A stretch of DNA of 24,630 bases, taken from the IMG/VR virus record IMGVR_UViG_2923318301_000004; one strand, given 5' to 3'. Positions 7,392 through 20,401 of the stretch are shown here, piece after piece. The notes under the pieces are model-generated. The model was not told where the DNA came from. It worked only from the letters and a program-made list of their open reading frames with translations, and did not search any database. Each line of letters begins with the position of its first letter. The stretch's first letter is position 1. A program made the translations under genes and the position numbers. The stretch is from a virus (lineage: Duplodnaviria; Heunggongvirae; Uroviricota; Caudoviricetes).

Positions 7392-8451
<1,060 letters not shown>

Positions 8452-8455
<4 letters not shown>

Positions 8456-8869
8456 TGCCACTGCTGGATAAGCTGCGTGAGCAGTACGGGGTCGGACCGC
8501 TATGCAGCGAACTGCATATTGCCCCGTCAACGTATTACCACTGTCAGCAACAGCGACATCATCCGGATAAACGCAGTGCCCGTGCGCAGCGCGATGACTG
8601 GCTGAAGAAAGAGATACAGCGCGTATACGATGAAAATCACAAGGTATACGGTGTGCGTAAAGTCTGGCGTCAGTTGTTACGGGAAGGTATCAGAGTGGCC
8701 AGATGCACTGTGGCACGTCTCATGGCGGTTATGGGACTTGCCGGTGTTCTCCGGGGTAAAAAGGTCCGTACGACCATCAGCCGGAAAGCCGTTGCCGCAG
8801 GCGACCGCGTAAACCGTCAGTTCGTGGCAGAACGACCTGACCAGCTGTGGGTGGCTGATTTTACTTACG
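8452..8869 (+). pseudogene. IS629 OrfB transposase, 5' exon (interrupted by group II intron)
   Basis: [34 protein letters not shown]...QLWVADFTY then diverges at the intron 5' end (GTGTG at 8870). Confidence 0.8.
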
Positions 8870-9540
8870 GTGTGCCCGGAGTTCAGGGCGGGCATGGATG
8901 CTTAAATGAACCGCGAGTCTGTCTGGAATATTGAGCCGGTAACTCACGATGAGAAACCCAACAATCCCACCGGGTGTGACGGTGGAGAACCTGAGCGGCA
9001 GTGACCTGCGGCATGCCCGCAGGGTGATGTAACCCGCTGACAACGGGGATTGAGGCGAGATCACTAAGCCGAGATGATCCTCAAGGTTAAGTACTGAAAG
9101 GCTGAAGAACATGAACCCGTTAATCCGCCTCTGTGGGTTGAAAACGTCACCACGGCCTACGTGATCTGACAGGCCGTGCAGGAGGAACTGGCAGTGATAC
9201 GTAAGCACTGCCGGTCGAAGGTGTTTTGACATGTATGCGAAACACCGGGGCAGCAGCGTCTATCACGCTTGCGTTGCTGACTTCTGCCAACTTGCGGCAA
9301 GCAAGGATAAAGAGTGCGACGGGCAGCCTCCTCAGTATGCCTGAGTCCAGGCAGGTAAACCGGGGAAGGTCAGCGACGGATGTTAAGGGGGCATGGCTCC
9401 GATGACGCGCTGGCTGGCGGAGCTTCCGTAGTAGTCCGCGATGGGGAAAGCCCATTACATGGCGAAGGGAAGCAGTTTGAATGTGTTTGCGACGTGAATT
9501 AACTGACCTAACGAGGTGAAGACCTTTGATAATCAGCGAA

Positions 9541-11049
9541 ATGCAACGCAAGCTTGCCACATGGGCAGTCACCGATCCGTCCCTACGGATTCAACGGCTG
9601 CTGCGTCTGATAACACAACCAGAATGGCTGGCTGAAGCGGCGCGGATCACGCTTTCATCAAAGGGGGCCCATACCCCCGGCGTTGATGGCGTGAACAAAA
9701 CAATGCTACAGGCCAGACTGGCTGTTGAGCTGCAAATCCTCAGGGATGAATTACTCTCAGGCCACTACCAGCCCTTGCCCGCCAGACGGGTTTACATCCC
9801 TAAAAGCAACGGCAAACTGCGACCACTGGGTATCCCCGCGTTGCGGGATCGTATTGTTCAGCGGGCCATGCTGATGGCGATGGAGCCGATATGGGAGAGT
9901 GATTTTCATACGCTCTCATATGGCTTCCGGCCTGAGCGCAGTGTCCACCACGCGATCCGCACGGTGAAATTACAGCTCACAGACTGTGGTGAAACCCGGG
10001 GACGCTGGGTGATTGAAGGCGACCTGTCCAGTTACTTCGACACCGTACATCATCGACTGCTGATGAAGGCTGTACGCCGCAGGATCAGTGACGCACGTTT
10101 CATGACTCTGCTGTGGAAAACCATCAAGGCGGGACATATCGATGTCGGTCTCTTTCGGGCGGCCAGTGAAGGTGTGCCACAGGGCGGTGTTATATCGCCG
10201 CTATTATCGAACATCATGCTGAATGAGTTCGATCAATACCTGCATGAGCGCTACCTGAGCGGGAAAGCCAGAAAAGATCGGTGGTACTGGAATAACAGTA
10301 TCCAACGGGGCCGAAGTACGGCGGTCAGAGAAAACTGGCAGTGGAAACCCGCGGTGGCGTACTGCCGCTATGCCGATGATTTTGTCCTCATCGTCAAAGG
10401 CACCAAAGCACAGGCGGAAGCCATCAGGGAGGAGTGTCGGGGTGTGCTCGAAGGCAGTCTGAAACTCAGGCTGAACATGGATAAGACTAAAATCACCCAT
10501 GTTAATGACGGCTTTATCTTTCTGGGGCACAGGATCATTCGCAAACGCAGTCGTTATGGCGAGATGCGAGTGGTCTCAACGATCCCGCAGGAGAAAGCCA
10601 GAAACTTCGCCGCATCGCTGACAGCACTGTTATCAGGCAACTACAGTGAAAGCAAAGTCGATATGGCTGAACAACTCAACCGAAAACTGAAAGGCTGGGC
10701 CATGTTCTATCAGTTCGTTGATTTTAAGGCCAAAGTCTTCAGTTATATCGACCGTGTCGTGTTCTGGAAGCTGGCTCACTGGCTGGCCCGCAAATACCGT
10801 ACAGGTATCGCTTCCCTGATGAGGTGGTGGTGTAAATCACCGAAACCGGGTCAGAGCAAAACGTGGGTTTTATTTGGTAAAACCAATCACGGCAAGCTCA
10901 GCGGCGAAATACTGTACCGGTTGGTGGGGCAAGGCAAGAAGCTGTTCCGCTGGCGGCTACCCGAAGGTAATCCCTATCTGAGGACGGAGACCAGAAACAC
11001 GTATACATCGCGCTTTACAGAAGTGGCAATGGCGTTCGCCAGCATTTAA
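9541..11049 (+). CDS. Group II intron-encoded protein (reverse transcriptase/maturase)
   Basis: RT motifs in order (RPLGIPALRDRIVQ; SYGFRPERS; YCRYADDFVLIV) followed by a maturase (X) domain; start assigned to the first ATG (MQRKLATW...) rather than the TTG at 9526 used by the ORF track. Confidence 0.85.
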   Translation: MQRKLATWAVTDPSLRIQRLLRLITQPEWLAEAARITLSSKGAHTPGVDGVNKTMLQARLAVELQILRDELLSGHYQPLPARRVYIPKSNGKLRPLGIPALRDRIVQRAMLMAMEPIWESDFHTLSYGFRPERSVHHAIRTVKLQLTDCGETRGRWVIEGDLSSYFDTVHHRLLMKAVRRRISDARFMTLLWKTIKAGHIDVGLFRAASEGVPQGGVISPLLSNIMLNEFDQYLHERYLSGKARKDRWYWNNSIQRGRSTAVRENWQWKPAVAYCRYADDFVLIVKGTKAQAEAIREECRGVLEGSLKLRLNMDKTKITHVNDGFIFLGHRIIRKRSRYGEMRVVSTIPQEKARNFAASLTALLSGNYSESKVDMAEQLNRKLKGWAMFYQFVDFKAKVFSYIDRVVFWKLAHWLARKYRTGIASLMRWWCKSPKPGQSKTWVLFGKTNHGKLSGEILYRLVGQGKKLFRWRLPEGNPYLRTETRNTYTSRFTEVAMAFASI

Positions 11050-11053
11050 ATGG

Positions 11054-11087
11054 AGAGCCGGATGCGCTGAAAGGTGCACGTCCGGTT
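11054..11087 (+). ncRNA. Group II intron domain V (catalytic hairpin)
   Basis: GAGCCGGATGCGCTGAAAGGTGCACGTCCGGTTC: about 34 nt, AGC triad near the 5' end, 2-nt bulge, GAAA tetraloop, immediately after the IEP stop codon and about 50 nt from the intron 3' end. Confidence 0.65.
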
Positions 11088-11111
11088 CGGGGAGGAGAGG
11101 CAGGGAAATAG

Positions 11112-11612
<501 letters not shown>

Positions 11613-11654
11613 GTTCACAGATAAAACACTCTCCAGGAAACCCGGGGCGGTTCA

Positions 11655-12792
11655 CTCATCTGCCGCTCTACCGCATCCCTCGACCATAATCCCGACTCAA
11701 TCAACGAACTACAAGCCATCGTCCTGAAGCCATGCCCACAAACCTCGACCTTCGTGTCATACCCCATTACGCGCAAAGCCTTGTTCACCGTATTCTCACT
11801 CATCGGCTTACGTGGATCGTGATCGCCCACAAAAATCAGCTCTCAATTTCCGCTCATGCTTTTGATCTTTTCCAAAATACTTAGGGCCTGCCGCGACAAA
11901 GGTACAAGGTGTGGTGTCCGCATCTTCGAGCCACGCTGAGAATGCTTGACTCCTTCCAGTTGCTCACGCTCACCTGGGATTGTCCACATAGCCGTTTCAA
12001 AATCTACTTCTGACCAGCGGGCAAAATGCAGCTCGCTCGAACGGATGAAAACCAATAAAGTGAGTTCAACCGCCAGCCGAGTTAACGGTCTGCCAGAATA
12101 GTGATCTATGCGATGAAGTAATTCAGGTATACGGTTCAGTTCAAGAGCTGCACGGTGCTGTCTTTTCGCCGTAGCAACCGCACCTGCAATCTCTTGCGCG
12201 GGGTTGTAGTCGATTAAGCCGCTCTGAACGGCAAAGCGCATAATCGCGGTAGTACGCTGCTGTAAACGGGCGGCAACTTCGAGCCGCCCGGATGACTCGA
12301 CTGCTTTAATGGGTACAAGAAGATCCCGCGTCTTCAGTTCCGCAATGTTCCGCTTACCGATAGCAGTAAAGAGATTATCCTCCAGACTTTTCAAAACACG
12401 AGCGCTATGCGATGCCGACCACTTCTGATTGCTGGCGTGCCAGTCTCTGGCGACTACTTCAACGTTATCGCCTCTTGTTCCTGTTCTACCTTAACAGCTT
12501 TCTTGTTTTCACTGGGATCGACACCATTAGCTAAAAGCTTACGAGCCTCATCCCGGCGTGCCCTGGCATCCGCCAACGACACTTCGGGGTATTTCCCCAA
12601 TGCCAGCATCTTCTCTTTACCGCCAAAGCGATAACGTAGCCGCCAGTATTTGGAGCCGTTAGGGTGAACCAGCAAAACCATGCCTTCACCGTCGGTCAGC
12701 TTATAGGCTTTTGCTTCAGGCTTAGCCGAACGAACCTTCACATCACTCAGAGCCATGATGAGTATCCTTTCAAGGGTTCTGTGTGGGTACAA
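11655..12792 (-). pseudogene. P4-type tyrosine integrase pseudogene (frameshifted, C-terminus removed by IS629)
   Basis: Three consecutive minus-strand ORF pieces (12454-12792 N-terminus MALSDVKVRSAKPEAKAYKLTDGEGMVLLVHPNGSKYWRLRYRF...; 11843-12394; 11615-11830) together cover a P4-like integrase but in different frames; the last piece abuts the IS629 end. Confidence 0.8.
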
Positions 12793-12976: not shown

Positions 12977-13210
12977 TAACTATATAACTCATTGAACATG
13001 ATGATAAAAATTTTATAGCTTATGACTTGTGCCCCATTTTGTGCCCCCAACAAAATCTTATTGTTGCTAACTAGCACAATAAATGAATTAGCAAGATAGA
13101 GTTGCCTAGTTAGGTTCCGTCTTACAGAGCCTAACCAGAACAACCAAACCTCTGAACCAACCTTGCGCAAGCTAGATAAAGTCATGCTGATTTATTAGGA
13201 CAACAAGCTA

Positions 13211-14143
13211 TTAAATTTCATATTTTGAAATTTCGCTGATTACATCATCCCCATATTTCTTAATCATGGAGGCAAAGAATTTATGTTCAATAAATTTCGC
13301 ATAGCCTAATTCTCCTTTAAGGGTTAGAATTTCTTTCTCAGATAAAACCCCACACACATAATAATGTATTTTACTTCTTAAAAGACGCTTTCTATCACGA
13401 CCTAAAGACAAATAACCATCAGTCGTAATAGTTACACCAGTTACATGTCTATTAAACTTCCTTGAGGTAAAAACTGTTTTCTCATGGTTTATTTTAATAT
13501 TCCTAAGATTTACTACGTTAAGAACTTCCCTTACTAACTTAGGAACATCAAATAAAGCTCCTTTGACTTTGGTGCTAAACGTAAGATCATCAGCATACCT
13601 TGAGTAGGTAATACCCAAATCCTTGCATCTTTTCGATATTTCCTCATCGAAGAAATACATTACTGTATTTGAAATAATGGGAGAAGAAGGTGCTCCAACA
13701 CTTAGGCGTAACGGGCTATTTCTTCTTAACTTCCAGAAGAAAAGATTTTTAAGAACAAAGATATCAGTATCAGTTAGTTCAACGCCATAATCTTTTAAGA
13801 CAGATAAAAGATTATGGGGTTTGATACTCATAAAAAAGTTTTTAAAATCCATTTTAAGCAAATAATCATTATTACAATGCATTAACGCATTAGATCTAAT
13901 ACTTTTATCGGCTTCATAAGCGAAAGCATTTTCATGAACTTTCAAATTAGCCAACATATGATTGATTACTACCTTCTGTAAGGCTTTAACTTGCCTAGCT
14001 GGTTGTGCAATTAATCTATATCCATTACCATTTCTTTTGGCGATAGGATAAATTTTATATCTGCGTGGAATAGTAACAATATACCTTTTAGCCTCTTCTT
14101 CGCTAAGAAAAAGACCTTTTGAAATATAACTTAGCAACTCCAT
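13211..14143 (-). CDS. Retron-type reverse transcriptase
   Basis: About 310 aa, RT domain only (no maturase or endonuclease); motifs SNALMH (NAxxH), FKNFF, VGAPSSP, YSRYADDLTFS (YADD) and NRHVTGVTI (retron VTG); start ATG lies 1 nt after the upstream effector stop (TAGaATG); collinear with Ec86 RT as I recall it. Confidence 0.85.
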   Translation of the reverse strand: MELLSYISKGLFLSEEEAKRYIVTIPRRYKIYPIAKRNGNGYRLIAQPARQVKALQKVVINHMLANLKVHENAFAYEADKSIRSNALMHCNNDYLLKMDFKNFFMSIKPHNLLSVLKDYGVELTDTDIFVLKNLFFWKLRRNSPLRLSVGAPSSPIISNTVMYFFDEEISKRCKDLGITYSRYADDLTFSTKVKGALFDVPKLVREVLNVVNLRNIKINHEKTVFTSRKFNRHVTGVTITTDGYLSLGRDRKRLLRSKIHYYVCGVLSEKEILTLKGELGYAKFIEHKFFASMIKKYGDDVISEISKYEI

Positions 14144-14144
14144 T

Positions 14145-15131
14145 CTAAGCCCCTCCACGCACGATATTGATTTGATTTAGAGCATTTTTCCTTTTTTTTG
14201 CAGTCTCGTCCATATCTTTAGCATCCATACTTAAGTAAGATTGTCGGATTGCAACCTTAATATTCATAGAATCCTTTATTTTACCACTAGCACTGATACC
14301 AAATTTAAGTTTACTCTCTCTATGCCCTCGGGAATAGAAGTAGTCTGTACCACTGTAAGATAATGATGAGGTTAATTTCATCTTTTCAAGCAAATAAAGT
14401 AAACGAGTTATTATTTTTTGTGGCACATCTATATCCATACAGTATAGTGCCCACTCTATTTCGCTTTTCTTGATTGGTTCTGATAAAAGGATTATTTCGT
14501 AAATCAATATAGCTAGGTGCCCAGTATTTTCAGGGTTATATCGCTCCGTTTTTTTTACACGTTTTAATCTAGAATGAATATCATGGTAGATAAGCTCAAC
14601 CTCATCATATTTCATACGATCCGATTTTGGCCATGGATAAACTGATACTGAGGCCTCATCTATTTTTTTAAGATACTCCAAAGGGCCTAAATATATAAAA
14701 GAAGATCTAGCAGGAATATTTTTTCGTTCATTTCCCTCAATCTCCTCAAATGGTGCGACTACATGCAATTTTTGAGCTAGAGACTTCCTATTAACAAATA
14801 ATCCAAGCTCAACTAACGAACCTGCACTTTCTAAACAGATAACAACTAATGTTGAAATATTTGCAATATCATCTTCAAAGCTCATTAGATCTGAATATGC
14901 CCCCTCTCTGAAGTAGTCATGGAAGTTCTCAGCTAAAATAAGAGAATCTGACAATTCAGGTTTGTGGCCTGCTACATAAGTAAATATGTGGTCTCGTACA
15001 CTCATTGGAGTGGAATTTATCGGCCCACCACAAACAAAAATAATAGGAGGCATGAACTGAACAGTGAAATTTGAATATTTCAAATCTCCAAACTGCTCTT
15101 GTAATGCATTCATATATGCAGAATCACTCAC
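14145..15131 (-). CDS. Retron effector, putative nucleoside 2-deoxyribosyltransferase-like (NDT) domain plus C-terminal putative DNA-binding domain
   Basis: 328-aa ORF between the structured non-coding region and the RT; N-terminal region PPIIFVCGGPI...ICLESAGSLVELGLF resembles the Rossmann-like NDT fold with a candidate catalytic Glu; likely GTG start at 15131 with AGGGGGT as RBS (alternative ATG at 15113). AT-rich codon usage like the RT. Confidence 0.6.
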   Translation of the reverse strand: MSDSAYMNALQEQFGDLKYSNFTVQFMPPIIFVCGGPINSTPMSVRDHIFTYVAGHKPELSDSLILAENFHDYFREGAYSDLMSFEDDIANISTLVVICLESAGSLVELGLFVNRKSLAQKLHVVAPFEEIEGNERKNIPARSSFIYLGPLEYLKKIDEASVSVYPWPKSDRMKYDEVELIYHDIHSRLKRVKKTERYNPENTGHLAILIYEIILLSEPIKKSEIEWALYCMDIDVPQKIITRLLYLLEKMKLTSSLSYSGTDYFYSRGHRESKLKFGISASGKIKDSMNIKVAIRQSYLSMDAKDMDETAKKRKNALNQINIVRGGA

Positions 15132-15139
15132 CCTTGTGA

Positions 15140-15420
15140 CCCCCTACTCCAAAAGAAAAGGTGGCTAACCAGCCACCTTCGACCCCTTTACCTAAAGGAT
15201 GCGCTTTAGACTTTCAGCAAGATCCTGAATGGAACGCAGTGGCATGAAGGATCTTGCTGAAAGTGCTAAAGCGCAACCCTAAATGTCCACAATAAATTAG
15301 TGTCTGGCGAAACGCCCGACAAGGATAAACCTGTTATCCCGCGCGTAAAGGTAGGGTTAGGATAGCAAAAGATGCGAGATTTTCAATAAGTAAGCGTACT
15401 GGCTGCCAGCAACCACCTAA
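15140..15420 (-). ncRNA. Candidate retron ncRNA (msr-msd) upstream of the effector/RT operon
   Basis: Non-coding, structure-rich stretch immediately 5' of the effector: long imperfect hairpin 15201-15274 (GCGCTTTAG.CTTTCAGCAAGATCC / GGATCTTGCTGAAAG..CTAAAGCGC), a candidate msd stem; second hairpin 15159-15180. Exact ends and a1/a2 repeats not resolved by eye. Confidence 0.45.
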
Positions 15421-15758: not shown

Positions 15759-16040
15759 TCAGACAGGAATCTGCTGACGGCTTGACAGTTTTGACGCGGA
15801 GCCATAGCGATTGAGCGTTTTCTGTTGTTTTTCCGGGGATTGTGCTTTGTCTGATAGCTGTTCATTGCGCCGGGGTTTCATGATTATCTTATCCACACTC
15901 TCCAGTGCCGTAAATGTGCAGGAACATTCCAGATTCTGGCACTGATACCACGAGCGTTTAACTGACGGAGCTTCATAGGCTGCTGTTCTGGCGTGTGCAA
16001 CTGTACCGCATTCCGGACATTTAAGTGCCATTAATATCAC
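15759..16040 (-). CDS. ogr: Ogr/Delta-family zinc-finger late-gene transcriptional activator
   Basis: ALKCPECGTVAHARTAAYEAPSVKRSWYQCQNLECSCTFTALESVDKIIMKP has the CxxC-(22)-CxxxxC pattern and spacing of P2 Ogr/P4 Delta; start may be the internal Met at 16031. Confidence 0.8.
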   Translation of the reverse strand: MILMALKCPECGTVAHARTAAYEAPSVKRSWYQCQNLECSCTFTALESVDKIIMKPRRNEQLSDKAQSPEKQQKTLNRYGSASKLSSRQQIPV

Positions 16041-16588
16041 TCCTGTATATCGTTAATGTCATTCAGGCGTTGCTGAAAACGCAGATGTTGTGCCGGGGTG
16101 TAAGAACCCTGGCAATCACGAATCATCCCGGGGTCAGGCATCAAACCGGATTCATCCAGGATCTCACGATAATCCCCGGCAATTTCAGGCGGTGTTATTG
16201 CCAGCTGGCGAACCAGAGCACTGCGTAATATACGGGACGCAACGTCAACCCCTCCGCGCCCCTTCAGGAACGGAGCCAGTGCAGATGTCAGGGCTGCCCC
16301 ATTCGCCTGCATAAAATTGCTGAGAGCGGCTTCTGTGCAGGCCTCCATCAGTAAATGCTGCGAGTAAATGCATTCGCGCGCAGCACAGTTAATTTGCCAT
16401 TTCAGCACATCCAGACGTTCCCGCAGTAATTCGAGCTGTCGGGCATAATCTGCTGGTTTTTCTGTGGCAGCGAGGAGAGATGTTATCTGTTGTTCAACGG
16501 CTTTTCGGCTCTCATTATGTCCGGCCCACAGAATACGGGCATTCCGAAAACTGGTAAGTGCCTGGTCAGGCGTGCCTCGGGCCGTCAT
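16037..16588 (-). CDS. psu: Psu-like protein (P4 polarity suppression / capsid decoration)
   Basis: 183 aa; segments LELLRERLDVLKWQINCAARECIYSQHLL, FMQANGAALTSALAPFL and YTPAQHLRF resemble P4 Psu as I recall it; start overlaps the sid stop. Confidence 0.65.
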   Translation of the reverse strand: MTARGTPDQALTSFRNARILWAGHNESRKAVEQQITSLLAATEKPADYARQLELLRERLDVLKWQINCAARECIYSQHLLMEACTEAALSNFMQANGAALTSALAPFLKGRGGVDVASRILRSALVRQLAITPPEIAGDYREILDESGLMPDPGMIRDCQGSYTPAQHLRFQQRLNDINDIQE

Positions 16589-17328
16589 ACTGCTTTCTCC
16601 TTCTCAGCAAGTTCCTGACGAACCTTAATTTTATGCATAGCTGCCGGAGAGAGTTGATTACTGAAATCCAGACGCGCCGCATAATCCGGGGCAACTCCCG
16701 CCAGTTTAAACACCGGGTCCTGCTCAGGCATCGCATCGTTAGCCAGAGCCGGTCTGGTGATATGTTTATGAATAAAGTCTTTCAGCACTGTGTCCGGGTC
16801 ATTAACTGAATTCACCACACCCACAACGGCACTGGCTTCCCGGCCCATTGTGGATTTAAGCAGGCTCAGCGTCTGAATAAGCGCTTTTCCATGCGACTGC
16901 ATAAAATCCTCCCAGATTTGTTTTGCGCGAATATCCACAAGAATGTTATGCGCGTGGATATACTTTCCGGCTAATTCTGCAGCTTTCTGCGGCAAAAGTG
17001 CATTTTCGCTTTCCTGAGCCGCCAGCAGCTCATCAAAATCCTCAAGCGTTTCTCGTCCCAGCGCAATTTCCGTGCGCAGTTTTTTCATTTCCTTTGAGAC
17101 CACGCCCTGACTTTCACGAAACAGCGTGCGCCACTCCTCATTCAGTGTGTTCGTCGTGGCTTCCATTTCAGCGCGACGCTGGCGGATTGTCGCAATATTA
17201 TCCGCTGCCGCTTTCTGCTGACGACGTGCTTCAAGCCATGCGTTTCTGGCTGTGTTCATGGTTTCCAGTGCCCGCTGCGTTACAGCCGGAAAAGTGGAAA
17301 GGTTGTTATTCACTGCGGTGTTGTTCAT
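16585..17328 (-). CDS. sid: Sid-like protein (P4 capsid size determination external scaffold)
   Basis: 247 aa, strongly helical and charged; EWRTLFRESQGVVSKEMKKLR and position directly upstream of psu match P4 Sid as I recall it. Family call rests mainly on gene context. Confidence 0.55.
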   Translation of the reverse strand: MNNTAVNNNLSTFPAVTQRALETMNTARNAWLEARRQQKAAADNIATIRQRRAEMEATTNTLNEEWRTLFRESQGVVSKEMKKLRTEIALGRETLEDFDELLAAQESENALLPQKAAELAGKYIHAHNILVDIRAKQIWEDFMQSHGKALIQTLSLLKSTMGREASAVVGVVNSVNDPDTVLKDFIHKHITRPALANDAMPEQDPVFKLAGVAPDYAARLDFSNQLSPAAMHKIKVRQELAEKEKAV

Positions 17329-17506
17329 GACTTCTCCTGTCGGGTTGGTTCGTTACGTCAATTGTGTCGTGGCTGACACAAGCACACTATCGGTGCTCAG
17401 TGTGTGGTGGCTGGCACAACGGACGCTTGCGGTTATTCAGACGTGGCTATGAAAGCCAGCCAGATAAAAATGCCCTCTGTTTCAGTCTGCTTTATGTCCC
17501 TGATGC

Positions 17507-17694
17507 GGTGGAACAGGTGAAACATGTGTTACAGCTTTGTTTTATAAGGCATTTATATACACTGCACCGGTGGAACATCGCGGGTAACAAGGTGGAACAG
17601 CGGATTGGCTGGCGTTACATCTGTTCCACCTCACTATTTCAGAAGGTGGAACAGGTTCAGCCCTGTAAAATACGGTTGTTCCACCTGTTTCACC
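17507..17694. repeat. Iteron cluster: 8 copies of TGTTCCACC / GGTGGAACA (two are TGTTTCACC variants) in both orientations
   Basis: Copies at 17507, 17516, 17569, 17591, 17622, 17646, 17677, 17686; in the non-coding gap between the alpha-like primase gene and sid; closely resembles the TGTTCACC octamers of P4 ori/crr that are bound by alpha. Confidence 0.6.
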
Positions 17695-17728
17695 TGTTAC
17701 CCTTAATAAATAAGACTCACGCAAAGCC

Positions 17729-20401
17729 TTAACCCGGCACCTCGCTGTTGAAGACATAGAGCCTGCGGGGATTCATCTCTGGCGGGCGAATGGTTGTCTG
17801 GAGTTTGCCATCAGTGGAGGGCAGCAGGTATCCACGATCTGCGCACAGACGCGCCACCTTGCGCGGGTCAAATCCCCTGCAGATTTCTTTCCAGCCGGAC
17901 GGCATGACATAGAACGTAGTGACAGCTTCCGTGCCCTGCGCGGTACTGCCTTTCTCCACCCTGCGCCAGCCCACCATATTGCCGGGGCGGTTGCGCTCGT
18001 CATACCAGTCTGCAAAGCGGCTGTACTGATTCGCGGTAAAGAAACTGCGAACCTGCTCCAGTGCGGCGATATCTTCCTGATTGGCGGTGTGCCCGCGATC
18101 TTTCAGCCATGCGTTCAGGCAGACGCGGGTTGCCCGCAGTGCTTCACCCTCAGGCCAGCCGGTGATACCCAGACGGGTTGCCAGTTCACCTGCCATCGCC
18201 ACCAGAGCAAAGCGGTTCACAGCCCGGCCCACCTGATTGCCTGCATCTTTCGGAGTCAGGGCGGCAGCATATTCCTTCATCAGCGATTTTGCCTGTGCCG
18301 TTAGTCCGTTAAGATCAGCGGTCAGTGCTTTCAGCCACTCCCGGAACGGCGAACCGTAGTAGCAGGACGTGGCCCATTCAAGATGCTCTGCCAGAGCCTT
18401 GCCGCTGTCGAAGCCGTGCAGCTCCTCAAAAACGCCAAACTTCCCGGAATCGCTGGGGATCTGGATCATCCTGACTTCCATCCCGGCAAAAGTACGCTCA
18501 CCGGCCTTTGCCGCATGTTCGGTCAGAGACAACTCGCCAGTTGAAAAGAACAACAGGCGCCAATGCTTACGGGTACGCAGCTCACCGTCCGTACCGGCAC
18601 GGCCCTTGCCCTGACCGTTTGCCAGCATGTAGGCGATATTGCCTGCCTCGCGTCCGTCAACTTCCCGGATCTCATCAAGCATCATGGCGGCATCGTTGCG
18701 GCGGCTGGCGCATCCCTCCAGCGCGTTGCCGGTGGCCCGCCATGTCTGCCAGTAGTCAGGCCCGCCGCAGACGGAGGTTGCCGCTTTCATGGTGGTGGTC
18801 TTACCGTCTGTCGATTCCCCTTTGAGGTGGTAGCCGCCGCCGTCCATACCAACCAGCCGTAACAGTGGTGCAGCAAAGGCCAGGCTGACAGCAAATGCCA
18901 CGCGGGAGTTGCCGGTACAGTAGCGGGATACATGCTCCCGCCATTCCTCTGTTGTGCCCGACACGCGGAAATCACGCCCCTGCACGGAAGTGGTCTGGAG
19001 AATGACACCCTCTGCACCTTCACCGCTGACCTCATCCTGCAGGACGTAAACCTGACCATGCCAGCCAGTACGACTGACGCAGGTCACGCGGCGTTCCGGT
19101 TTACACAGTGAGATATATTCCATCAGGCGTGCGCGTGCCTCACCGGTGGTGCTGATATAAGACAGCCCGTTAACCAGCAATACCCGGCGCAGTTCCTCAC
19201 CACTGCCGCTCAGCATTTCCATCGGCATCGCCCAGCGGCGACACTCACCCCACGTATCTTCCCATTCCAGCAGTCGTCCGAAGTTACCGCCATCGGCATC
19301 GCAGGTGATTGCCGTCACGCGCAGCGGGCTGCATATTTTGACGTTCTGGATCTCCGTCTCACCGTTGCGCTGTACCTGCTTTTCATACCAGAGATATTCC
19401 TGGGTAAGACGGAACCCGTGCGGCAGTTGCGTGCGGCCCTCCCCGCACAGCACCAGACCGTTACGAAAGGCTTCACGGGCGCGGGTAATACCGTGCTCCC
19501 GATGGAAGTCATTCCAGTCGGCCTTAATCTCTCCCGGTGGCAGCGTCATCCAGCCGCCAACAGCTTTTGCCGCCCGTTCAGCAAAGGCTCTGCCGGGATT
19601 CTCACCCCCGTCCTGAAAATCGTTATCACCGGCGATGATAATTTTTACCTCAGGCCAGCGTGCCCGCAGCGACTGCGCCACATTGGGCAGGTTGCCCGCA
19701 GATATGGCAGCCACTACGCATCCGGCAGTGAGCTGACTTACCGTCAGCGCCGTAGCGTAACCTTCGGTAATCACCACCTGTACCGGTGGTTCAGACGGTA
19801 ACGGGCTGAGCGACACAAACGCGCCTTTCATCGTGCTGCCGGGCAGTATGCTTTTTTCACCCGTCGGGGCGATAAGCTGTGCACCAGTCACGGCTCCGGT
19901 GTTGGTCGTGAGTGGTAACAGCAGGGAACCGGCAGGAAAATCCTTACCGCTGATATGCTGCACGCTTCCGGTCAGAGAGGCCGGGTATCCGGCGAACCCT
20001 TTTCCTGTCAGATAGGCGCTTTCTCCCGTGTGGCTCTCTTTCATCAGCGCCGCCACGGTAAGACCCATGTCGCGTTTAGGGGCTTTTTTTCTGGCAGGCT
20101 TAACAGGCAGTTCCTGCACATCCGGCACATTAAGCACCTGCGCCACCTCCTGCGCAGCCTTTCTGACGCTGTAACCGGTTACGAGCTTAACCAGATCCAG
20201 ACCGTCACCATTGCCACACTGGCTGCAGATCCACGTCCCGCGCCCGTCAAGGTCATCAAGGCGAAAACGATCCTTGCCCCCACATTTCGGGCAGGGACCG
20301 TGCCTGCCGTTTTCAGGTACATCAATACGCAGCATCTGGAGAATAACGGGCCATTTCCCCCGTGCGGCGGCTGAAATCTGCGTAACCGTCTGTATTGTCA
20401 T
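17729..20401 (-). CDS. P4 alpha-like primase-helicase (zinc-binding N-terminus, TOPRIM primase, C-terminal P-loop helicase)
   Basis: 890 aa; CPKCGGKDRFRLDD...WICSQCG zinc ribbon; TOPRIM-like VVITEGYATALT...IIAGDNDFQDGGENPG; Walker A GESTDGKTT. Confidence 0.85.
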   Translation of the reverse strand: MTIQTVTQISAAARGKWPVILQMLRIDVPENGRHGPCPKCGGKDRFRLDDLDGRGTWICSQCGNGDGLDLVKLVTGYSVRKAAQEVAQVLNVPDVQELPVKPARKKAPKRDMGLTVAALMKESHTGESAYLTGKGFAGYPASLTGSVQHISGKDFPAGSLLLPLTTNTGAVTGAQLIAPTGEKSILPGSTMKGAFVSLSPLPSEPPVQVVITEGYATALTVSQLTAGCVVAAISAGNLPNVAQSLRARWPEVKIIIAGDNDFQDGGENPGRAFAERAAKAVGGWMTLPPGEIKADWNDFHREHGITRAREAFRNGLVLCGEGRTQLPHGFRLTQEYLWYEKQVQRNGETEIQNVKICSPLRVTAITCDADGGNFGRLLEWEDTWGECRRWAMPMEMLSGSGEELRRVLLVNGLSYISTTGEARARLMEYISLCKPERRVTCVSRTGWHGQVYVLQDEVSGEGAEGVILQTTSVQGRDFRVSGTTEEWREHVSRYCTGNSRVAFAVSLAFAAPLLRLVGMDGGGYHLKGESTDGKTTTMKAATSVCGGPDYWQTWRATGNALEGCASRRNDAAMMLDEIREVDGREAGNIAYMLANGQGKGRAGTDGELRTRKHWRLLFFSTGELSLTEHAAKAGERTFAGMEVRMIQIPSDSGKFGVFEELHGFDSGKALAEHLEWATSCYYGSPFREWLKALTADLNGLTAQAKSLMKEYAAALTPKDAGNQVGRAVNRFALVAMAGELATRLGITGWPEGEALRATRVCLNAWLKDRGHTANQEDIAALEQVRSFFTANQYSRFADWYDERNRPGNMVGWRRVEKGSTAQGTEAVTTFYVMPSGWKEICRGFDPRKVARLCADRGYLLPSTDGKLQTTIRPPEMNPRRLYVFNSEVPG

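Follow-up and report, generated by a model that had tools for sequence, protein, structure and literature searches.

The open reading frame from position 15131 to 14145 is, with a probability of about 0.8, the effector (toxin) gene in a type II-A1 retron that has all its parts and that a P4-like satellite prophage of E. coli carries as cargo in its psu-int hotspot. The window, by which we mean the whole 24,630-nt stretch of DNA that was analyzed, holds all retron features described below on its minus strand. Among type II-A1 (RcaT-type) retrons that reside in the P4 hotspot of E. coli lineages often met in the clinic, the locus makes a well-supported example. The effector gene, its start codon, its motif and the retron type are already recognized by defense-system and RefSeq models, and the RcaT family, the motif, the domain architecture and the catalytic glutamate have been published before. 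A pattern of start codons and terminator-like hairpins that runs through the family offers a modest lead.

Components and type of the retron

The effector gene (14145..15131, minus strand) encodes 328 amino acids and is assigned to the RcaT/STM3845 family of retron effectors by PADLOC, NCBIfam, RefSeq and its homologues. The PADLOC profile NDT_II-A matches residues 9–321 (1.8e-87). The NCBIfam equivalog model NF038232 (STM3845/RcaT) has a cut-off of 100 bits and reaches 223.7 (3.5e-66), with residues 21–299 covering positions 2–277 of the 277 in the model. All of the 226 homologues that were found carry PF28093 (STM3845) in the protein database. When the effector was scanned against Pfam, no family matched at E values up to 1; the Pfam copy that was scanned seemingly does not contain PF28093.

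The reverse transcriptase gene (13211..14143, 310 amino acids) has an ATG start at 14143, one nucleotide past the effector stop codon (TAG-A-ATG). The protein is recognized by Pfam (RVT_1, 1.5e-27), by NCBIfam (retron_St85_RT, 333.9 bits against a cut-off of 235) and by RefSeq (WP_000422112.1), and its best two PADLOC profiles are RT_II-A (7.9e-121) and RT_I-A (1.1e-112). The YADD sequence occupies residues 183–186, and the enzyme fits clade 1, which is common to types I-A and II-A1.

Upstream of the effector gene lies the retron ncRNA (msr-msd, 15185..15351), recognized by its fold z-score and by an RNAalifold consensus. It consists of a1 (15351–15345), two msr stem-loops, an msd hairpin of 74 nt (15274–15201) and a2 (15191–15185), and G15344 is the candidate branching G. 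The region folds far better than its shuffled versions (z = −7.5). In the consensus of seven loci, the window and six homologous ones, a1 pairs with a2, and compensatory changes are seen at ten pairs, most of which belong to the msd stem. No Rfam family matched the ncRNA. A consensus scan found a promoter-like site for the retron transcript at 15359..15386 (TTGAAA, 16 nt, TATCCT, with a TG before the −10), which we regard as a candidate promoter on the basis of this pattern match. E. coli N9 and Klebsiella have kept the −10 region and everything downstream of it; upstream of this region the sequence diverges.

Mestre et al. (2020) describe type II-A1 effectors as having an NDT-like N-terminus, distantly related to the nucleoside deoxyribosyltransferase (NDT) family, and a C-terminal DNA-binding domain; the type includes Sen2 (St85), Vch2 (Vc81) and Eco3 (Ec73). 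In the window, an NDT-like N-terminus and a C-terminal domain of DNA-binding type are joined in one polypeptide, and an adjacent msr-msd carries a1/a2 inverted repeats and the msd stem-loop. Judged by its sequence, the cassette is a type II-A1 retron with intact ncRNA, effector and reverse transcriptase. The preliminary description of this DNA had placed it in type II-A, which agrees with the PADLOC profiles for both proteins and with NCBIfam scores that are above the cut-off for both.

Translation start of the effector

Comparison of sequences gives good support to a start of effector translation at GTG 15131 (15129..15131). An in-frame TAG at 15146–15144, four codons 5' of this GTG, makes it the first possible start of the 328-codon reading frame and rules out a longer frame that begins further upstream. 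The same TAG overlaps a Shine-Dalgarno-like AGGGGGT (15139..15145), which is separated from the GTG by 8 nt and is kept in E. coli N9 and Klebsiella. Apart from GTG 15131, the only start candidate is an ATG six codons on (15111..15113), so that the GTG is the sole candidate 5' of the conserved Tyr6. Met27 was rejected as a start as well, this position being Ile, Thr, Ser or Leu in most homologues. RefSeq/PGAP uses the identical GTG for WP_223349259.1, the ‘retron St85 family effector protein’ of E. coli M217.

The start was compared across six distinct homologous loci, from Klebsiella, Dickeya, Providencia, Yersinia, Citrobacter and Rahnella, whose effectors are 63–90% identical to the window protein. 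All six have GTG or TTG at the aligned start codon. Codons 2–6 encode S-D-S/T-A-Y in five of them, with synonymous differences, and the Rahnella protein has a more diverged N-terminus (SDATYDSDY). The non-ATG start that was originally described agrees with RefSeq and is backed by the six homologous loci.

It is improbable that the true start is the ATG at codon 7, in which case the protein would have 322 residues and the GTG would merely have been picked by open reading frame logic. This ATG does occur in the window and its closest relatives (Klebsiella, Dickeya and Providencia), three close homologues (P0008, P0009 and P0013) have database entries that open with the codon-7 methionine, and the PADLOC profile match starts only at residue 9. 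However, the preservation of residues 2–6 (SD[ST]AY) through synonymous codon changes argues for translation of this segment. Position 6, which is 5' of the codon-7 ATG and falls in the first helix of the structural model (residues 4–14), is aromatic throughout the family and has a counterpart in the Eco1 effector. Instead of the codon-7 ATG, the homologue from Citrobacter has ACG and that from Yersinia CTG, so that both must start at TTG or GTG. Furthermore, a Shine-Dalgarno sequence is absent at normal distance from the codon-7 ATG, and many family members have their first in-frame ATG beyond a conserved strand, as described below for the whole family. We judge that the ATG at 15113 is not the main start, with GTG 15131 preferred, but minor initiation at this ATG may give a second, shorter product.

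Fold and predicted active site

An AlphaFold model of the effector, built on the alignment of homologues, has a pLDDT of 88.9 and a pTM of 0.89. According to this model, residues 1 to about 197 (14541..15131) form an N-terminal helix and an NDT-like, flavodoxin-like domain of N-glycosidase type. A predicted winged helix-turn-helix module follows at residues 203–267, approximately (14331..14525), with three helices and two strands, and after it come two long helices. The alignment and the model place the two C-terminal helices at residues 288–300 and 309–327 (14151..14270), with conserved Lys313, Arg314 and Ile321. The helix-rich, DNA-binding-like C-terminal part that had been anticipated from the sequence is thus recovered in the model as a winged helix with two further helices.

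Structure prediction and a Foldseek search, which had been proposed as a check, found the flavodoxin-like NDT fold. Among PDB entries the only significant Foldseek matches are Eco1 effector chains, which align over the full length (E values of 5e-10 to 2e-9), and after Eco1 come N-glycosidases of the NDT superfamily. The Ec86/Eco1 retron effector is also the sole solved relative that can be found by sequence, with 2e-6 for the single sequence and 9e-18 for a profile of 109 homologues. The same profile retrieved no NDT chain from the PDB at E values up to 10, and the Pfam scan gave no sequence match between the effector and the NDT family proper (PF05014 and PF15891). The model suggests that the likeness to bona fide NDT enzymes exists at the level of the fold only. 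The resemblance to NDTs that was proposed earlier holds for the fold and probably for the catalytic glutamate, but not for the sequence, where even the profile finds no match.

TIR and receiver domains match the effector fold about as well as NDTs do, which leaves the chemistry undecided by the fold alone. This similarity is what speaks for an N-terminal domain that is a TIR-like NADase or signaling domain, or a non-catalytic flavodoxin-like interaction module, rather than an NDT-type N-glycosidase. We consider this unlikely. In an alignment of 109 homologues that are 38–90% identical to the window protein, Glu101, Ser102, Gly104, Val107, Glu108 and Gly110 of the motif ESAGSLVELG (residues 101–110, 14802..14831) are invariant, and so are Arg46, Glu68, Asp72, Glu86 and Ser144. 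The motif aligns with ESPGSFTELG of the Eco1 effector, and Glu68, Asp72, Ser102, Glu108 and Ser144 align with Eco1 Glu65, Asp69, Ser100, Glu106 and Ser133. A preprint on Ec86 reports that Glu65, Ser100, Glu106 and Ser133 are conserved and that alanine substitutions impair defense. It also describes that Asp69 and Glu106 hold the base in the pocket and equates Glu106 with the catalytic Glu98 of the NDT from L. leichmannii (LlNDT).

The second glutamate of the motif, Glu108 (14810–14808), is the predicted catalytic residue. In PDB entry 8qbl, labeled ‘inactive effector (E106A)’, the glutamate that differs from the wild-type chain is the one aligned with Glu108. Millman et al. found that the Ec73 mutation E117Q, described as inactivating the catalytic site, abolishes defense, and Ec73 Glu117 is presumably the same glutamate as Glu108 here. 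A 2025 paper places Val106 of RcaT-Sen2 and Thr105 of Eco1 next to the active site, which fits Val107-Glu108 in the window protein. The NDT-like catalytic signature that had been noted in the sequence is supported by the correspondence of Glu108 with Eco1 Glu106 and by the invariance of the active-site residues. An NDT-type N-glycosidase remains the preferred assignment for the N-terminal domain.

Genomic context and distribution

The cassette sits between P4-type delta, psu, sid and alpha genes and a P4-type integrase gene, which is the arrangement of the psu-int hotspot. This hotspot of P4-like satellites is known to carry defense systems, retrons among them. The GC content of the cassette is 31–36% and that of the flanks about 50%. 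The psu-int arrangement is also found, with intact integrases, at the Citrobacter, Yersinia, Dickeya, Providencia and Rahnella loci. No tRNA gene marks an attachment site within the window, and the cassette has no match in the GenBank phage collection.

The 2.4-kb cassette is present at 99% identity or higher in 153 of 5,426 complete E. coli genomes. Apart from this retron and one variant of 94% identity, these genomes contain no DNA that is at least 85% identical to it. The variant occurs in E. coli N9 and has a reverse transcriptase with yet another accession.

The P4-type integrase of the window is a pseudogene with a frameshift and an internal stop, truncated by remnants of IS3 and by a group II intron. 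This decay of the carrier satellite might suggest that the cassette is a silent relic that is no longer expressed or functional in the strain, but such a reading is very unlikely: both open reading frames of the cassette are intact, all active-site residues of the effector are present, the pairing of the ncRNA is retained, the cassette is nearly unchanged in the 153 genomes, and with its integrase lost the element stays where it is, which has no bearing on the state of its cargo. An intact retron in a decayed satellite is the better description.

Weak effector starts and an upstream hairpin across the family

The use of a non-ATG start is a trait of the effector family. Start codons were counted in 37 loci, comprising the window, the six close loci and 30 species-representative genomes. 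TTG opens the effector gene in 15 of these loci, GTG in 11 and ATG in 11 (non-ATG in 26 of 37). At the same loci the reverse transcriptase starts with ATG in 33 of 34 cases and with a non-ATG codon once, and the difference between 11/37 and 33/34 ATG starts is significant (Fisher p = 1e-9). For E. coli K-12 genes in general, about 83% of the starts are ATG and about 3% are TTG. At most loci the chosen effector start is the only candidate between the upstream stop codon and the conserved aromatic residue. Moreover, 25 of the non-ATG loci are informative on this point, and in 18 of them no in-frame ATG occurs until codon 37 or later, past the strand with the invariant F-x-CGG motif (residues 32–38), which makes a non-ATG start obligatory there.

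After de-replication at 70% identity, 19 non-ATG and 8 ATG clusters remain, with at least six switches on the tree. Start-codon use depends on the clade, and a clade with an ‘MFE/MYE’ N-terminus uses ATG. Of ten loci from viral contigs, six or seven start with ATG and two or three do not; when these are included, about 28 of 46 effector starts are non-ATG.

A second element of the upstream region is a terminator-like hairpin between a2 and the ribosome-binding site of the effector (15151..15180), detected in a terminator scan. Its 10-bp stem is formed by GAAGGTGGCT and AGCCACCTTT around a GGTT loop. On the minus strand the hairpin proper spans 15180–15157, and TCTTTT comes next. By its pattern this is a putative intrinsic terminator; in the window taken alone, the scan found such sites to be no more numerous than in shuffled sequence. 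Since the hairpins of different loci do not come into register under MAFFT, each locus was scanned separately, with shuffled and coding controls. An equivalent hairpin, perfect and rich in GC, is present in 29 of the 37 family loci, usually with a T run behind it, and ends 13–56 nt 5' of the effector start. The stem sequences vary between loci, so it is the structure that is conserved and not the sequence. In 65% of the loci the 70 nt 5' of the effector start hold a perfect stem of 8 bp or more; shuffles do so in 2% of cases and coding windows in 6%. At the other end of the gene, the effector stop and the start of the reverse transcriptase overlap or abut in the family loci.

These features suggest that type II-A1 retrons could share an expression design, composed of a hairpin after the ncRNA, a weak effector start and an abutting reverse transcriptase gene with an ATG start, that keeps the toxin scarce relative to the antitoxin. 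We consider the odds for such a shared design to be about even. The start and hairpin pattern may have been selected to limit the dosage of the toxin. No description of this start-codon and terminator design was found in the literature searched.

Proposed mechanism and implications

By homology with characterized relatives, the effector at the window locus would be toxic, as extrapolated from Sen2 and Eco9, and would be neutralized by a complex of reverse transcriptase and msDNA. The mechanism should then include reverse transcription of the msd hairpin into msDNA, as described for Sen2 RcaT, Ec73 and Eco1. The complex formed by the reverse transcriptase and msDNA would bind the effector and hold it inactive. 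The effector could be released or activated, as in the relatives, when a phage factor modifies (methylates), degrades or binds the msDNA. Glu108 would then catalyze N-glycosidic cleavage of a substrate of nucleotide type; for Eco1 this is reported to be NAD+ or adenine nucleosides and nucleotides. The resulting growth arrest would abort the infection, again by analogy with the relatives.

The anatomy of the cassette suggests how the components might be balanced. A single promoter could give abundant ncRNA, and a leaky intrinsic terminator directly after a2 would limit read-through into the effector and reverse transcriptase genes. The weak GTG start would further lower translation of the toxin, and the abutting reverse transcriptase gene with its ATG start may be translationally coupled. 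With terminator, weak effector start and coupled reverse transcriptase acting together, the antitoxin components, ncRNA and reverse transcriptase, should never fall below the toxin.

If dosage is indeed controlled in this way, constructs in which the native 5' region is replaced, or in which the start codon is ‘repaired’ to ATG, may turn out to be toxic or misregulated. Annotation pipelines that prefer ATG would in that case truncate effectors, and the three database entries mentioned above that begin at the codon-7 methionine are of this form.

Comparison with known systems

Among the closest known systems is Sen2 RcaT (St85; STM3845) of Salmonella Typhimurium, a type II-A1 retron whose effector belongs to the same NF038232 family and the same subtype as the window effector. 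Its gene order, msrmsd-effector-RT, is that of the window, but the host and the msd differ. For Sen2, toxicity, neutralization by the reverse transcriptase-msDNA complex and phage triggers have been shown experimentally, and this neutralization of the effector, which makes the retron a tripartite toxin-antitoxin system, has also been shown for Eco9 and Eco1. According to the 2025 paper there is no experimental structure for any II-A1 effector.

Eco3 (Ec73), from retronphage phiR73 of E. coli, is likewise of type II-A1 and carried on a P4-like element. Its upstream gene encodes ribosyltransferase and DNA-binding domains, like the window effector, and the 74-nt msd hairpin of the window is similar in size to that of Ec73. 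Mutation of YADD in the reverse transcriptase abolishes Ec73 defense, as does E117Q. The window retron is related to Ec73 but is not Ec73. The two reverse transcriptases have different accessions (WP_137545672.1 for Ec73, WP_000422112.1 here), and the published residues Glu117 and Asp189/Asp190 contrast with Glu108 and Asp185/Asp186 in the window proteins. Neither window accession is listed in the supplement of the retron census, and the msd sequence of the window was not found in the text of the papers searched.

Eco1 (Ec86; PDB 7v9x, 7xjg, 8qbk and 8qbl) represents type II-A3 and has the same architecture of an NDT-like domain followed by a winged helix. In the Foldseek structural alignment its effector is 18% identical to that of the window, with a TM score of about 0.5, a value that suggests a different relative placement of the domains in the model. 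The Eco1 reverse transcriptase belongs to clade 9 and that of the window to clade 1, and the ncRNAs differ as well. Filament formation, a Dcm trigger and depletion of NAD+ or adenine derivatives are features described for Eco1 only. The Eco1 effector is reported to be a hydrolase of NAD+ or adenine derivatives and not a transferase, and its substrate is disputed, with NAD+ hydrolysis accompanied by ADP-ribosylation on one side and depletion of adenine derivatives (in a preprint) on the other.

The enzymes of the NDT superfamily, such as LlNDT (7m5h) and the CMP N-glycosidases MilB, BlsM and BcmB, are more remote and share no detectable sequence similarity with the window effector. Compared to these enzymes, the Eco1 relative reportedly has a larger pocket, with room for two ligands. 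The window effector further differs from the NDT enzymes in its fusion to a winged helix and, if the analogy with the characterized retrons holds, in being controlled by a reverse transcriptase-msDNA complex.

Effector start codons and expression of the retron genes

Weak start codons are characteristic of the RcaT/STM3845 effector family. In the window the effector start codon occupies 15129-15131, and the same site was compared in the homologous loci L002-L050. Initiation at a codon other than ATG was found in 26 of the 37 type II-A1 loci (the window and 36 family loci), with TTG in 15 and GTG in 11. For 18 of 25 loci with a non-ATG start there is no in-frame ATG ahead of the invariant F-x-CGG strand. 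ATG serves as the effector start in one clade, the members of which have MFE or MYE N-termini. For the adjoining reverse transcriptase (RT) gene, ATG is the initiation codon in 33 of 34 loci.

The effector stop codon and the RT start codon abut as TAG-A-ATG (14141-14147, minus strand), and in homologous loci the two genes overlap by 4 nt (ATGA) or by 1 nt. This abutting or overlapping arrangement of stop and start suggests that the RT is translationally coupled to the effector.

Upstream of the effector, a terminator-like hairpin (15151-15180, minus strand) lies between a2, the inverted repeat that forms the 3' end of the retron ncRNA, and the effector ribosome binding site. In 29 of the 37 loci the structure of this hairpin is kept while its sequence is not, and its frequency far exceeds that in shuffled and coding controls. 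In L004-L033 the hairpin precedes the effector start by 13-56 nt. No space remains for a promoter belonging to the effector itself, and this implies that expression of both the effector and the RT depends on read-through.

Genomic context of the retron

A P4-like satellite (15759-20401 and 11615-12792) carries the retron as cargo, and of this satellite the genes delta (15759-16040), psu (16037-16588), sid (16585-17328) and alpha primase (17729-20401) were recognized. The retron cassette (13000-15000) has a GC content of 31-36% and the satellite genes on its flanks one of about 50%, a difference that fits a horizontally acquired module. The satellite integrase adjoining the retron (11615-12792) is a pseudogene, truncated and split into three ORF fragments. 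It is abutted by IS3-family remnants within which a group II intron is nested (8410-8526 and 9526-11612). These comprise an ALIL frameshifting pseudoknot of an IS3-family remnant (8410-8526), the ltrA-type RT/maturase of the intron (9526-11049), its domain V/VI RNA (11053-11139) and an IS3-family transposase fragment (11166-11612). Related retrons occupy the equivalent satellite position in five other genera (Citrobacter, Yersinia, Dickeya, Providencia and Rahnella), and there the integrases are intact.

The cassette is also present outside P4-like satellites, since a Klebsiella quasipneumoniae locus (L006, NCQH01000005.1) with a 90% identical effector and a nearly identical ncRNA has no P4 genes within 3 kb. 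Its neighbours are proline-biosynthesis-type genes (AA_kinase/PUA and Aldedh) on one side and a MalT-like regulator on the other. The effector encoded by L041, a 22.7 kb IMG/VR viral contig (IMGVR_UViG_2711768076_000014), is 100% identical to the window protein, and the element has therefore already been catalogued as viral or satellite sequence.

Hydrophobic helix of the effector

Residues 203-215 of the effector (window 14487-14525) form a hydrophobic helix, GHLAILIYEIILL, which in the predicted model is the first helix of a winged-helix module, with pLDDT above 90. This helix probably accounts for the description of relatives as bitopic or 'inner membrane' proteins.
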